From Candidatus Poribacteria bacterium (GTDB lineage Bacteria; Poribacteria; WGA-4E; WGA-3G): a DNA stretch of 64,000 nt. This document shows positions 19,251 through 23,859 of this stretch, in pieces. The position numbers and the translations under genes were made by a program. Position 1 is the stretch's first letter. Every line of letters begins with the position of its first letter. The DNA is taken from assembly GCA_965215265.1 (NCBI GenBank), contig OZ244048.1:2336001-2400000 (forward strand). Reading direction: 5' to 3'. The notes below the pieces were generated by a model. That model was not told the DNA's origin, made no database searches, and worked only from the letters and a program-made list of their open reading frames with translations.

Positions 19251-19415
19251 AAACGTCTCCATTCTCCGTTGCGGTGGGTGTGCCGAAGAGATTGGCAAAT
19301 GCCCACCGCAACTAACATCTCTGAAGTATACGTGGGCGGGGGGACACACTCTCTCGCCTCTACACAAAGTAGGGAACCCATGCCGTGGGTTCCCGCATCA
19401 AAAAGGAGGATTCCG

Positions 19416-21344
19416 ATGAAAAAAACAGTGATTTTAACAATCCTGACGTTACTGGGCGTGACAACGCTACTATTAGCCACTTCATCAGACAATCATCCGT
19501 CGCAATTGCGGATTACAGAGCCAGAGCCAATAACGCTTACAGAACCAGAGCCAATAACGATCCAGCGAATTCTCATAAACGGGTTGCGGCTTGATGGCCC
19601 GGGAATAGTGAAGTACCCTACTAATCAGCTGCCTGACACTGAAGATTTCGCGTGTTACGACGACAACACGTTCATCTTACTGGAGCAATACAAGCAAACC
19701 TGCGGTATCACCTGCGCAGAGATGCTTTTGCACTACTACGGCAAGAATGTCAGCGCGGATCAGATCTGGGATAAGGGCGGCATTTATAGCGTGGATACCG
19801 GTGCGTGGCCTAACGAGTTAGTGGCTGCCTTGAGCAGACTCGGAGTGGATGTAATCTTGGAGAAGAGGCCGGATAATTGGTGGAAAGCGCTTCACGGTTT
19901 ATTCTACCAAGTAGAGCAGAACCGCCCGCCGATCGTCTTGCTCCGTTACGGAAACGTGTACCACTATTCGGTCGTCGTCGGGTTTGATACCACTGGTGTA
20001 ACTGATAAAGTAAAAGGAATCCGCAATGTTATACTCGCCGATCCGCACAACGTTTACCGAATCATGCAGCTGAATACGTTCCTAAAAGTCTGGTCTTTAA
20101 AGACTTCCGAGATAGAACTACCGGGAGGCGGCTTTAAGGGGATGGTGAACAAAGGTTTGGTAATCGCTGTGAACACGAAGGATTATAGGTACGTGAGCAT
20201 CAATCCGAGGATGCAACCGCAGGAACATTTCCCCCCGAATTGGTCACAACTGAAAGCCGATATGATTATCGGAGAAAAGAAGGCCAACTGGACCCTTGGT
20301 TTTTTCTCTAGTGGAAAGCGTCACTGGGAGCGGACGTACAGATTCAAGCATCCCTTTAAGTCTTACAGCGTCTCGGCAATAGATCCGTTGCTATGGGAGG
20401 TACCATCCTCGTGGGGTACAAGTGGCTATATGCAAGGGCATGAGGCCAAGTGGGGGGATGACGGTGCACACAAGCTGAGAATCTGGGGTCGCATTGAGCA
20501 CGGGAAGGTAACACGTGGGCATTTGTGGGTCATGGTCCGCACCTACCGGAACCGTAAGAAGGAAACCTTCCCCGCAGGCATGGCACTCATCCCCGCAGGC
20601 ACCTTCCAGATGGGCAGCGAGGATGCTGATGCCCGGGATAACGAGCAGCCTGTGCATACGGTGCATGTGGACGCGTTCTATATGGATACGCACGAAGTGA
20701 CGAACGCCGAGTATAAAACTTTTGTGCTGGCGAACCCCGAGTGGCAGAAGGGGCGGATTCCGGATGCCTTCCACAGCGGTAAGTACCTAAACCGTTGGGA
20801 AGGTAATAACTATCCTTCGGGTAAGGCAGACCATCCTGTGGCGAATGTGTCGTGGTATGCGGCGATGGCGTATGCCGCGTGGGCGGGTAAGCGTCTTCCA
20901 ACGGAGGCGGAGTGGGAGAAAGCGGCACGGGGTGGGAAGTCAGGGTTAAAGTATCCGTGGGGAGACAGGATAACGGAGAAAGATGCGAACTACGATAGGA
21001 ATGTAGACGATACAACGGCTGTGGGGAGTTATGCGGCGAACGGATATGGGCTATATGATATGGCCGGGAACGTTGAAGAGTGGTGTCTTGACGCTTATGA
21101 TTCGGATTTCTATTCTGCGTCTCCGTCTAGTAATCCGCTGAGTGGTGTGTCTGGCAATACGCTCGCGAATCTGGATGAGATTGTAGATAACTATACAGGT
21201 GTTAAGTCTCCTCGCGTGTTGCGCGGCGGTAGCTGGGGCCATAATAATTCACATTACCTGCGCGCTGCGGATCGCGACTGGACTCCACCGACGACCACGA
21301 GCCTCGTCGACGGGTTCCGGTGTGCGAGGGCTGTCACGCCTTAA
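19416..21344 (+). CDS. Secreted peptidase-C39-like domain fused to a C-terminal FGE-sulfatase (SUMF1/CLec) domain
   Basis: SD AGGAGG; signal peptide; QYKQTCG...HYSVVVG...DP papain-like residues; RLPTEAEWEKAARGG, GLYDMAGNV and GFRC FGE motifs. Confidence 0.85.
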   Translation: MKKTVILTILTLLGVTTLLLATSSDNHPSQLRITEPEPITLTEPEPITIQRILINGLRLDGPGIVKYPTNQLPDTEDFACYDDNTFILLEQYKQTCGITCAEMLLHYYGKNVSADQIWDKGGIYSVDTGAWPNELVAALSRLGVDVILEKRPDNWWKALHGLFYQVEQNRPPIVLLRYGNVYHYSVVVGFDTTGVTDKVKGIRNVILADPHNVYRIMQLNTFLKVWSLKTSEIELPGGGFKGMVNKGLVIAVNTKDYRYVSINPRMQPQEHFPPNWSQLKADMIIGEKKANWTLGFFSSGKRHWERTYRFKHPFKSYSVSAIDPLLWEVPSSWGTSGYMQGHEAKWGDDGAHKLRIWGRIEHGKVTRGHLWVMVRTYRNRKKETFPAGMALIPAGTFQMGSEDADARDNEQPVHTVHVDAFYMDTHEVTNAEYKTFVLANPEWQKGRIPDAFHSGKYLNRWEGNNYPSGKADHPVANVSWYAAMAYAAWAGKRLPTEAEWEKAARGGKSGLKYPWGDRITEKDANYDRNVDDTTAVGSYAANGYGLYDMAGNVEEWCLDAYDSDFYSASPSSNPLSGVSGNTLANLDEIVDNYTGVKSPRVLRGGSWGHNNSHYLRAADRDWTPPTTTSLVDGFRCARAVTP

Positions 21345-22690
21345 ATCTTTACCCCTTTACCCCTTCCGAGCTGCACGCAGCTCGGGTCGATGCGATTTTG
21401 TGTTGATTTTGAGATGTGTTATGTGTTCCCTGTTGCGACAAGCGTGGGGAGATTGTCCGAACAAGCGCCGGTCCAACAGGGAAAATCAGATCTATTTTAT
21501 ATAAACAGTATGGACAATGCCGTGGATGCTCTTGAAGAGATTCCGGCATCCGTTAGCCGCGAGCGTTTCGCGGCATGTGGAGGTATCTAATGTGTAATAA
21601 AAAAGTGTCAATGATGTTTGCAATATTGGTGTGTATGGTTTTGGGGTTAGGTGGTGTTGGCGAAGTGTCGGGACGACGGGCCCCCGAAGGTATGGTGCTC
21701 ATCCCCGCTGGCGACTTCCAGATGGGCAGCGACGATGCTGAAGCCGATGGTGACGAGCAGCCTGTGCGGACGGTGTATGTTGACGCGTTCTACATGGACA
21801 CGCACGAAGTGACGAACGCTGAATATAAAACTTTTGTGCTTGCGAATCCCGAGTGGCAAAAGACGCGGATTCCGGATGCCTTCCATGATGGTGGTTACCT
21901 ATGGGATTGGAGCGGTAATAACTATCCAGCGGGTAAGGGAGACCATCCTGTGAGGTATGTGTCGTGGTATGGTGCGATGGCATATTCCGCGTGGGCAGGT
22001 AAGCGTCTTCCAACGGAGGCGGAGTGGGAGAAAGCAGCACGCGGGGGGTTAGTTGGTAAGAAATACCCGTGGGGAGACACGCTAACGCCGAACGATGCGA
22101 ACTACGATACTGGCGGTACAACGGCTGTGGGGAGTTATGCGGCGAACGGGTATGGGCTATATGACATGGCCGGCAACGTCTGGGAGTGGTGTCTGGATGC
22201 GTATGATGCGGATTTCTATTTTCATTCGCCGTCTCGGAATCCGCTGAGTGACGTGAACACCATATCGAATCTGGATGAGATTGTAGATAACTATACAGGT
22301 GTTAAGTCGTCTCGCGTGTTGCGCGGCGGGAGTTGGTACGGTACTACTACGCGGACCCTGCGTGTCGCCTATCGCGCCGGGTCTCCCCCGACGTACTCGG
22401 GCAACATCGGGTTCCGGTGTGCGAGGGCTGTAACTCCTTAAATCTTTACCCCTTTACTCCTTCCGATCTGCGTGCAGCTCGGGTCGATGCGATTTGTGTT
22501 GATTTTGAGATGTGTTATGTGTTCCCTGTTGCGACAAGCGTGGGGAGATTGTCCGAACAAGCGCCGGTCCAACAGGGAAAATCTTATCTATTTTATATAA
22601 ACAGTATAGACAATGCCGGGGATGCTCTTGAAGAGATTCCGGCATCCGTTAGCCGCGAGCGTTTCGCGGCATGTGGAGGTATCTAATGTG
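21345..22690 (+). repeat. Near-identical ~245-bp intergenic unit duplicated between FGE genes (21345-21590 and 22442-22686); first ~45 bp also follow the third gene
   Basis: Direct comparison shows only a few substitutions or indels between copies. Confidence 0.9.
21590..22441 (+). CDS. Secreted FGE-sulfatase (SUMF1/CLec) domain protein
   Basis: SD GGAGG; signal peptide; same FGE motifs as the upstream gene; variable C-terminus. Confidence 0.9.
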   Translation: MCNKKVSMMFAILVCMVLGLGGVGEVSGRRAPEGMVLIPAGDFQMGSDDAEADGDEQPVRTVYVDAFYMDTHEVTNAEYKTFVLANPEWQKTRIPDAFHDGGYLWDWSGNNYPAGKGDHPVRYVSWYGAMAYSAWAGKRLPTEAEWEKAARGGLVGKKYPWGDTLTPNDANYDTGGTTAVGSYAANGYGLYDMAGNVWEWCLDAYDADFYFHSPSRNPLSDVNTISNLDEIVDNYTGVKSSRVLRGGSWYGTTTRTLRVAYRAGSPPTYSGNIGFRCARAVTP

Positions 22691-23678
22691 TGATAAAAAA
22701 GAGTCAAAGGTTTGGAGGGCAGTAATGTCCCCTAAAAGTGTTTCAACAGTTTTGAGGTATATCCTGTCCGCTAAAAAAGTATCAAAGGTTTGGAGGGCTG
22801 TAATGACTAATAGAAACGTGTCAGTGATGTTAGCCATATTGGTGTGTATGGTTTTGAGTTTAGGGGGTGTTGGCGAAGTGTCGGAACAATCGGCACCCGA
22901 AGGCATGGTGCTGATTCCTGCCGGTGAATTCCAGATGGGCAGCAACGATGCCGAGGCCGATGTTGACGAGCAGCCTGTGCATACGGTGCATGTGGACGCG
23001 TTCTACATGGATACGCACGAGGTGACGAACGCCGAGTATAAAACTTTTGTGCTTGCGAATCCCGAGTGGCAGGAGGGGCGGGTTCCGGATGCCCTCCATG
23101 ATGGTTCCTACCTAAGGCATTGGGAAGGTAATAACTATCCAGTGGGTAAAGGGGACCATCCTGTGAGGTATGTGTCGTGGTATGGTGCGATGGCTTATGC
23201 TGCGTGGGCAGGGAAGCGTCTTCCAACGGAGGCGGAGTGGGAGAAAGCAGCACGTGGTGGGTTAGTTGGTAAGAAATACCCGTGGGGTGACACGATAACG
23301 TGGGGTGACACGATAACGGCGAACTACAATGATAATGTAGGCGGTACAACGGCTGTGGGGAGTTATGCTGCGAACGGATATGGGCTATATGATATGGCCG
23401 GCAACGTTTACGAGTGGTGTCTGGACGAGTATAATGCGGCATTTTATTCTGCGTCTCCGTCTAGTAATCCGCTGAGTGGAGTGTCTGGTAGTACGCTCGC
23501 GAATCTGGATGAGATTGTAGATGACTACACAAATGTTATCTCATCTCGCGTGTTGCGCGGCAGTGGCTGGGGCGATAAGGTTGCACGGGACCTGCGCGCC
23601 GCTGATCGCGGCTGGAATAGGCCGACGTCCACGGACCTCTACACCGGGTTCCGGTGTGCGAGGGATGTCACGCCTTAA
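22686..23678 (+). CDS. Secreted FGE-sulfatase (SUMF1/CLec) domain protein (alternative starts 22725/22803)
   Basis: FGE motifs; several in-frame SD+start units before the signal peptide. Confidence 0.9.
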   Translation: MCDKKESKVWRAVMSPKSVSTVLRYILSAKKVSKVWRAVMTNRNVSVMLAILVCMVLSLGGVGEVSEQSAPEGMVLIPAGEFQMGSNDAEADVDEQPVHTVHVDAFYMDTHEVTNAEYKTFVLANPEWQEGRVPDALHDGSYLRHWEGNNYPVGKGDHPVRYVSWYGAMAYAAWAGKRLPTEAEWEKAARGGLVGKKYPWGDTITWGDTITANYNDNVGGTTAVGSYAANGYGLYDMAGNVYEWCLDEYNAAFYSASPSSNPLSGVSGSTLANLDEIVDDYTNVISSRVLRGSGWGDKVARDLRAADRGWNRPTSTDLYTGFRCARDVTP

Positions 23679-23859
23679 ATCTTTACCCTTTACCCCTTCC
23701 GAGCTGCGTGCAGCTCGGGGCGCTGCGATTTTTAACAGTTAGTAAAAAAGTAGACTGTAAATCCATCCTTATGCCTCCTTTTATTTTTCTTATTTATAGG
23801 ATAGCATAAGGATGGAGTCCCTCACACGCAAAATCAACTCATTTCTTAGGAGAGTTTAC

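Follow-up and report, generated by a model that had tools for sequence, protein, structure and literature searches.

Three tandem FGE-domain genes in a poribacterial genome as very probable remote targets of its single diversity-generating retroelement

Three neighbouring genes in a 64,000-nucleotide stretch of a Candidatus Poribacteria bacterium genome (assembly GCA_965215265.1, contig OZ244048.1, positions 2,336,001 to 2,400,000 of the forward strand; the whole stretch is called the window below) encode proteins with a formylglycine-generating enzyme (FGE)-type C-type lectin (CLec) domain. Their 3′ ends combine fixed anchors with highly variable codons, which raises the question of what wrote them. 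An earlier note, made from the sequence of the window, proposed that these genes are remote targets of a diversity-generating retroelement (DGR) encoded elsewhere. We followed this proposal through the genome, a single contig of 4,833,177 bases (C1 in the coordinates below), and found one A-rich, non-coding copy of the variable sequence beside a reverse transcriptase (RT). We conclude that the three window genes are, very probably, remote (trans) targets of the single DGR of this genome.

Variable regions and a distant template

The sequence CGC GTG TTG begins at positions 21213, 22313 and 23547 of the window, and the three genes end with stop codons at 21342-21344, 22439-22441 and 23676-23678. 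Their 3′ ends could be aligned over about 190 nt as invariant anchors with variable codons between them, and 11 codons varied at position 1 and/or 2 while keeping the same third-position pyrimidine in all three copies. Within these ends lie the stretches homologous to the distant copy, which we call variable regions (VRs) and the template repeat (TR), respectively: VR1 at 21212..21327 (+; 116 nt), VR2 at 22312..22424 (+; 113 nt) and VR3 at 23546..23661 (+; 116 nt). In each gene the last five codons before the stop lie beyond the end of the VR. VR1 differed from the TR at 17 of 35 A sites and 4 of 78 non-A sites (Fisher p 1.9e-7; by TR base, A 17/35, C 2/32, G 1/30, T 1/16), VR2 at 20/33 and 5/77 (p 3.3e-9), and VR3 at 20/35 and 2/78 (p 6.8e-11). 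The C-terminal ~115 nt of the window genes are a VR homologous to the TR and differ from it almost only at TR adenines. The earlier note had the coordinates of the three FGE/CLec open reading frames (ORFs) and their alignable 3′ ends exactly right, as it did the 11 codons with a fixed third pyrimidine, and every example triplet that it quoted is present; its suggestion of an adenine-specific mutagenesis footprint agrees with the concentration of mismatches on template adenines in VR1-VR3.

With VR1 as query, the whole-genome search returned 41 matches at E<=10, of which three lie inside the window, and a Pfam RVT_1 search gave exactly one match, at C1:1,420,096-1,420,737 (85.2 bits). This RT belongs to a DGR cassette at C1:1.417-1.421 Mb, in which two FGE target genes, among them one with its own, cognate VR (116 nt), are followed by Avd, the RT and the TR. 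Avd (118 aa) ends 62 nt before the RT start and matched NF033474 DivGenRetAVD with 120.2 bits (cut-off 80) and PF22296 bAvd at 2.6e-23. The RT (354 aa) reads IGNLTSQ and YVDD, and the I/LGxxxSQ motif marks DGR RTs. Its best solved relative was 8ub7, a 328-aa chain named 'Reverse transcriptase' (9.6e-63), which we take to be the BPP-1 bRT, and group II intron RTs matched at 1.2e-20 or weaker. None of the DGR-specific NCBIfam RT models matched the cassette RT.

The TR itself, at C1:1,421,034-1,421,146, is a non-coding, A-rich sequence of 113 nt that lies ~90 nt after the RT stop and 936,178 bases from VR1. It consists of 35 A and 78 other bases and is the only VR-like copy in the genome with A at all 35 sites. 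It is also the only family member that continues with AGACCC (AGACCCT) after the shared GGGTTCCGGTGTGCGA, where the VRs have GGGCTGT or, in VR3, GGGATGT. Translated in the VR frame, the TR reads RGGSWNNNTRNLRAANRNRNTPTNTNNNNGFRCA / RVLRGGSWNNNTRNLRAANRNRNTPTNTNNNNGFRCA; it contains 12 AAY codons and no codon that an A-to-N change could turn into a stop. Whole-genome VR-like and RVT_1 searches found no second TR and no second RT in this genome. From the window alone, the template had been predicted to read roughly RGGSWNNN..NLR..NRN.N.PTNTNNNNGFRCAR, which this translation follows nearly letter for letter, and the remark that neither RT nor template lies nearby also held, with no VR-like copies in the window beyond the three and the sole RVT_1 match 936 kb off.

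If the mechanism is that of the BPP-1 DGR, an RT-Avd complex would copy the TR RNA, inserting bases at random opposite A, and the resulting cDNA would then replace the VR from the initiation of mutagenic homing (IMH) sequence leftwards to a homology-dependent 5′ crossover. Such rewriting would re-randomise up to 12 AAY codons and 8 other A-containing codons without ever creating a stop, and about 10^17.6 peptides would be possible per VR.

Two further features were observed behind the TR. The 70-90 nt downstream of it are conserved between this genome and a genome of a related genus, G004 (for example, GGGTTGCCAGAGTTGGTGTGCCTCCGA), and, judging from this conservation, may be part of the DGR RNA that primes cDNA synthesis. 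Directly behind the TR lies a Transposase_31 gene (YhgA/Rpn-like; PF04754, 1.4e-28) at C1:1,421,466-1,422,293. Of the 16 copies of this family with at least 92% identity, eight follow the TR, a VR end or one of the orphan tails described below at a distance of 217-424 nt and on the same strand, and none lies behind the three window VRs. This family may have helped to spread target 3′ ends.

The 3′ module and the genome-wide target set

Terminal VRs are followed by elements in a common order: the end of TR homology, GGGCTGT.AC.CCT, a TAA stop, a TTTACC-like spacer of ~21 nt and the inverted repeat CCGAGCTG-CRYG-CAGCTCGG. Genome-wide there are 20 occurrences of the spacer motif, all 20 directly behind an IMH and stop codon, and the hairpin was found nowhere else in the genome than behind a VR-type IMH, for which reason we rejected the idea that it belongs to the general intergenic repeats of this genome. 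The hairpin is kept in 19 of the 23 terminal VRs, including all three in the window, and its stem pair 5 is G-C in 9, T-A in 6 and broken in 4, which makes one covarying position. The module of gene 1 (21312..21385, +) comprises GGGTTCCGGTGTGCGA, the IMH tail GGGCTGT, the stop at 21342-21344, a 21-nt TTTACC spacer (21345-21365) and the hairpin (21366-21385), CCGAGCTG-CACG-CAGCTCGG, in which 9/9 pairs form and whose 8-bp stem and 4-nt loop are present in the minimum free energy (MFE) fold. In gene 2 (22409..22482, +), the IMH and stop (22439-22441) precede a spacer of 21 nt (22442-22462), after which comes a hairpin (22463-22482) with 8/9 pairs and a single T.C mismatch; its arms come from the two hairpin variants, and the stem is interrupted in the MFE fold. 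The module of gene 3 (23646..23718, +) has an IMH with the tail GGGATGT, the stop at 23676-23678, a spacer of 20 nt that lacks one base (23679-23698) and a perfect hairpin (23699-23718; 9/9 pairs). The IMH core is intact in all three window VRs (16/16 bases).

VRs of this kind are widespread in the genome. We identified 32 VR copies in 25 loci, three of which are broken inside the VR, and 30 of the 32 copies lie >100 kb from the RT. Mismatches were enriched at TR adenines in all 32 anchorable copies (p 2e-5 to 8e-16); pooled over these, they affected 643/1098 A (59%), 90/1017 C (9%), 37/957 G (4%) and 44/509 T (9%). Besides the 23 terminal VRs there are 9 internal ones. A Pfam domain scan of 22 intact target proteins (19 elsewhere and the three window proteins) revealed single FGE domains behind hydrophobic or lipoprotein-like N-termini and fusions to Dockerin_1, Cohesin, Peptidase_C14 (caspase) and C39-like domains; five target proteins carry three FGE domains in tandem. 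STAND NTPase or MoxR partners were absent from the 22 proteins scanned.

Three triple-FGE paralogs, at 1.56, 4.14 and 4.44 Mb, provide an internal comparison between VRs with and without the 3′ module. Their 300-nt flanks are 95-98% identical, and the VRs of domains 1 and 2, which have no stop, spacer or hairpin, share an A-site identity of 0.94-1.00. The terminal VRs have an A-site identity of only 0.26-0.34, as in unrelated pairs (family mean 0.35). Because the terminal VRs differ like unrelated pairs while flanks and internal VRs are near-identical, at least two of the three terminal VRs were rewritten after the triplication, and the internal ones were not. Post-triplication activity of the DGR is thus shown for these targets, which lie hundreds of kilobases to megabases from the RT. 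The contrast between frozen internal and re-randomised terminal VRs would show, as a natural experiment across the genome, that the stop-spacer-hairpin module licenses remote targets.

Some target loci have unusual structures. One internal VR, at C1:1,263,785 (+) in a 966-aa triple-FGE gene, contains a 33-nt tandem duplication in the part behind CTGCG (the 3′ block), which is 76 nt long instead of 43. Two orphan target tails, at C1:2,998,798-2,998,886 (-) and C1:4,393,826-4,393,914 (-), consist of IMH core, stop, spacer and hairpin with no VR ahead of them. They are 97-98% identical to the tail in the window, and each lies ~85 nt behind the stop of a PA14-domain gene; the gene before the first of them encodes the same lipoprotein-like N-terminus as FGE targets. 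This arrangement appears to reflect the replacement of the FGE domain by a PA14 domain, with the tail left in place. Two of the four VRs with 0/78 non-A mismatches, at C1:4,150,273 (-) and C1:4,795,203 (+), are frame-broken, with lengths of 108 and 115 nt. Real pseudogenes, indels in the cDNA and assembly consensus artefacts arising from a variable population are all possible explanations.

Targets that are co-directional with replication have been reported to be edited 7.6- to 24.6-fold better (PMC12875486; here and below, statements about published work refer to the excerpts of the cited papers that were available). Cumulative GC skew and long-ORF strand skew in this genome gave no usual two-arm pattern and no usable origin or terminus, and on the plus strand G outnumbers C by about 20,000.

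Age and origin of the window variable regions

Several observations weigh against the window genes as targets of this DGR. The stretch between TGG and CTGCG (block 1) measures 21 nt, or seven codons, in all three window VRs and 18 nt, or six codons, in the TR and 27 other scorable VRs. Because of this difference none of the window VRs can be a plain full-length copy of today's TR. VR2 has one codon more than the TR in block 1 and one fewer in the 3′ block. With lengths of 116, 113 (+3/-3) and 116 nt, compared with 113 nt, the three VRs are not co-linear with the TR and depart from the expectation for complete replacement. All five non-A mismatches of VR2 are recurrent family markers of a second, B-type VR, and its hairpin carries a mismatch; VR3 has a spacer shorter by 1 nt and an altered IMH tail. 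The folding energies of the three hairpins are no better than those of shuffled sequences (z -0.60, +0.64 and -0.08), and it is therefore position, conservation and one covarying pair that speak for the hairpin. Finally, contigs of three of three sequencing runs of one study (X4, X5 and X6) carry VR1-VR3 with 0 differences, and their depth over the VRs is no lower than in the unique flanks (in X5, 332 and 343 compared with 254-315), so that no major within-population variation is visible in contigs. These contigs are a weak test, as they hide rare variants and possibly come from the assembly's own source samples. VR3 lies inside a 2,025-nt contig of the sampled runs, and in a run from another study (X1), which contains a ~98% strain, the contigs break at VRs.

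The unequal length lowers the probability that the VRs were freshly copied from today's TR and not that they are DGR targets, and the non-A sites point to a template with a history. Six recurrent non-A changes account for 83 of the 171 non-A mismatches and define the B-type; VR2 belongs to it, and VR1 and VR3 have A-type centre markers, like the TR. Twelve VRs share T51 and C55, states that are also present in the TR of G004. Two of the three central markers are in the B state in that TR, which makes B probably the older form of the template. Four VRs, among them the cognate one, have 0/78 non-A mismatches, and their 3′ blocks measure 46, 46, 45 and 41 nt compared with 43 in the TR. Private codon insertions thus occur both in the window trio (+1 codon) and in these freshest VRs (a mostly longer 3′ block), though the adenine sites have been randomised independently. 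The template has changed over time in sequence, and probably also in the length of its AAY repeat, with each VR recording the state at its last rewriting; alternatively, transfer preserves the length of the recipient. Such patchwise, length-preserving transfer of cDNA lies outside the current model of whole-VR replacement.

The genome of a related genus, G004, whose RT is 83% identical, has the same cassette and module and its own TR, also with six codons in block 1; when its VR-like copies were compared with that TR, 16 of 20 scored copies were A-biased at p<=4e-5, one at 8e-4, and three were not. G024 (RT 79% identical; 390 contigs) has one VR copy, and the same-genus genome G001 has neither an RT nor VR copies. 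In the named genome collection, the nearest relative of the RT is in an uncultured Poribacteria bacterium (83%), followed by metagenome-assembled genomes (MAGs) and then by many cyanobacteria, including Nostocales, at 55-60%. Neither 60 further family genomes nor the metagenome collection yielded an array orthologous to that of the window. A search with the first 386 aa of gene 1 found no relative in metagenome_contigs and, in those 60 genomes, none above 42% identity; metagenome_contigs also contained no exact match to the 23-nt IMH pattern.

How, then, did the window VRs acquire their present sequences? Ordinary divergence of paralogs, driven by positive selection on a binding loop and without any retroelement, would fit tandem paralogs that are ~80-86% identical, and binding surfaces often evolve fast. 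We nevertheless consider it extremely improbable, as the variation falls on the adenine positions of a non-coding repeat next to an RT/Avd pair, third codon positions are fixed while positions 1 and 2 are randomised, and module-less VRs are identical between paralogs of 96-97% identity in which module-bearing VRs are randomised. That VR1-VR3 were written by this DGR lineage is, in our judgement, highly likely. Less clear-cut is whether they were written from the TR present today. A second or earlier TR, since lost or slipped, may have had four AAY codons opening block 1, or the array may have been imported from a strain with such a template. The extra codon is private to three adjacent genes (3/3 in the window, 0/27 elsewhere), and the third-base pattern of block 1 fits AAC AAT AAT AAT ACA CGA AAC. 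Shared ancestry, which we considered as the source of the extra codon, was rejected: the window genes do not form a clade on 560 nt of non-VR sequence, where gene 2 groups with 762319/1666045 (support 99/95), and their derived A-site states, alike in 7/12, 4/10 and 4/12, are no more alike than those of random pairs (median 0.39 over 496 pairs). The change in the template recorded by the 12 VRs with T51 and C55, and the deviating 3′ blocks of the four freshest VRs, would also agree with another template. We regard this explanation as unlikely all the same, given that this genome has one TR and one RT, that the TR of G004 has six codons as well, and that neither the 60 family genomes nor the metagenome collection yielded a donor or a gene 1 ortholog above 42% identity.

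A different possibility departs from ongoing targeting only on the question of present activity: the VRs could be fossils, written by the DGR in the past and now parts of ordinary fixed genes, each with its own specificity. Much of the evidence above can be read this way, including a block-1 length unlike that of the TR in all three VRs, 4, 5 and 2 non-A mismatches where the four freshest VRs have none, the imperfect hairpin and older template type of VR2, the 20-nt spacer of VR3, and the identity of VR1-VR3 in the contigs of all three runs at full depth. However, the IMH cores remain intact and the hairpins of VR1 and VR3 are perfect. Non-A divergence from the TR is 2.6-6.5% in the window VRs, well below the ~15% in the gene bodies, which places their writing after the divergence of the paralogs. 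DGR homing is normally rare, so that fixed consensus alleles are expected even for live targets. Moreover, the 5′ boundary in BPP-1 is set by homology (PMC5758913), and a rewriting of only the 3′ two thirds would be allowed. We find the fossil explanation a serious contender that falls just short of being favoured, and hold continued rewriting of VR1-VR3 today to be possible, with slight doubts prevailing. The placement of the genes among the remote targets of the single DGR is shared by both outcomes. A more ambitious picture remains tentative and, taken as a whole, unlikely: one RT and one 113-nt template would keep >20 dispersed sponge-symbiont genes hypermutating, and the VRs would form a dated record of this process; template AAY repeats would expand and contract, or cDNA patches would preserve recipient length, and the stop-spacer-hairpin would license remote targets.

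Known systems, the FGE fold and the layout of the array

Cellular DGRs with remote FGE/CLec targets are already known, and the one described here is notable for the size of its target set, its clean cis module and its internal controls. The DGR of Treponema denticola with its target TvpA is likewise cellular, with one RT and one TR, FGE-fold targets far from the cassette and a C-terminal VR. Here, however, the host belongs to the Poribacteria and is not a spirochaete, and the partner domains are dockerin, cohesin, caspase, C39-like peptidase and triple-FGE arrangements. In a 2017 survey Treponema had the most non-adjacent targets, seven, and the survey maximum was eight in tandem (PMC5758913), compared with 32 VR copies in 25 loci here, although the supplementary tables of such surveys might list larger sets. 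Under the strict rule of that survey (only A-to-N changes with minor exceptions, a limit that we took as <=2 non-A mismatches), 8 VRs here qualify. Up to six target genes per MAG have been described (PMC11661182), and the largest metagenome survey, in the excerpt available, states that its approach could not detect remote targets (PMC8144416). Full-text literature searches found no report of a published DGR in Poribacteria or sponge symbionts.

Cyanobacterial DGRs (Vallota-Eastman et al. 2020, PMC7517822), whose RTs are 55-60% identical to the one described here, also have modular targets, with C-terminal CLec domains grafted on signalling and peptidase domains including orthocaspases. Their CLec paralogs were dispersed by intragenomic duplication, with TR-like matches only at 3′ termini. 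They comprise 90 targets for 58 DGRs, whereas one TR here is related to 25 loci, and the partners here mostly look extracellular (dockerin/cohesin, hydrophobic N-termini) and not like kinases. Thiohalocapsa sp. PB-PSB1 (Dore et al. 2024, PMC10907252) similarly combines many FGE/CLec targets, tandem VR-CLec domains and peptidase partners with loci shaped by duplications and transposons, and trans activity has been proposed for it; it has nine DGR loci in four classes with 15 targets, in contrast to the single RT/TR and 25 loci of this genome.

The BPP-1 DGR (Guo et al. 2011, PMC3240598) shares with this system the RT and Avd, an A-specific TR/VR pair, a 3′ IMH and a GC-rich hairpin with a 4-nt loop downstream. 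Phage DGR hairpins have 7-10 bp stems and 4-nt loops and lie 4-34 bp from the VR, and IMH and hairpin suffice to target a foreign gene (PMC3240598). By comparison, the hairpin here begins 38 nt past the end of TR/VR homology, slightly beyond that range and behind a TTTACC-repeat spacer, and its loop is CRYG/CACG rather than GRNA. The order target-Avd-RT-TR, the remote chromosomal targets and the cellular rather than phage-borne location also set this system apart from BPP-1.

With one RT/TR and 25 VR-bearing loci, this closed 4.8-Mb genome illustrates the scale that trans-targeting can reach, and the presence of terminal and internal VRs and of old and new template types makes cis requirements and homing tempo testable from sequence. 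The repertoire, which would be programmable, consists of apparently secreted or surface binders with dockerin, cohesin, caspase and C39-like domains and is a candidate interface to the host matrix, microbes and phages.

The fold of the window proteins bears on their annotation. Gene 2 matched bacterial and human FGE structures at 5e-39 to 2e-35 and Treponema TvpA (2y3c) at E 5.4e-10. In the alignment with 6muj/2q17, the FGE segment LCHDSYC, whose two cysteines we take to be the catalytic pair of true FGE, stands opposite the cysteine-free start of the gene 2 VR. Cysteine is likewise missing from the equivalent stretch of the VR peptides of genes 1 and 3, where the TR encodes NNNTRN. Lacking the catalytic cysteine pair, the window proteins should not be filed as sulfatase maturases and appear to be variable binders; because the VR occupies the catalytic-cysteine part of the fold, they would use the FGE fold as a variable ligand-binding face. 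By the same token, about 30 'sulfatase-modifying factor' domains without catalytic cysteines in this genome would represent variable binding modules and not sulfatase-maturation capacity.

Gene 1 (+) is open from a TTG at 19269, has its likely start at the ATG at 19416 (MKKTVILTILTLL) and ends at 21344. It encodes a hydrophobic N-terminus, a Peptidase_C39-like domain and a C-terminal FGE-sulfatase/CLec domain; in the 691-aa ORF, Pfam gave FGE-sulfatase at residues 437-687 (E 1.2e-63) and Peptidase_C39_2 at residues 139-260 (E 7.3e-9). Gene 1 is thus predicted to join an FGE variable face to a C39-like peptidase domain. Gene 2 (21575..22441, +; 288 aa) encodes a hydrophobic N-terminus followed by one FGE-sulfatase/CLec domain (PF03781, E 4.1e-61). 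Gene 3 (22671..23678, +) is an ORF of 335 aa with a hydrophobic N-terminus and one FGE-sulfatase/CLec domain (E 2e-63). The start codons of genes 1 and 3 and the signal peptide of gene 1 were chosen by reading the sequence, and the window proteins are apparently secreted, as predicted from hydrophobic N-termini alone.

The intergenic stretches behind genes 1 and 2 are identical at 131 of 134 positions, and both of the next genes begin with MWRYLMC. We considered whether VR1 and VR2 might have been rewritten after a recent duplication of the 3′ end; the 131/134 tract, however, starts only behind the hairpin and runs into the 5′ end of the next gene. Between IMH and hairpin, genes 1 and 2 are identical at 53 of 59 positions, unlike the tract beyond the hairpin.

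The 5′ part of the gene 3 ORF (22671-22890) is built of repeated leader units encoding KKVSKVWRAVM, and the likely start is therefore nearer MTNRNVSVMLAILVC. Such units are also found at the N-terminal ends of many other target genes. In runs X5 and X6, the contigs include a version of gene 3 in which 99 nt are skipped (22672 to 22772), with 10 different letters in between, and thus the number of KKVSKVWRAVM repeats varies.

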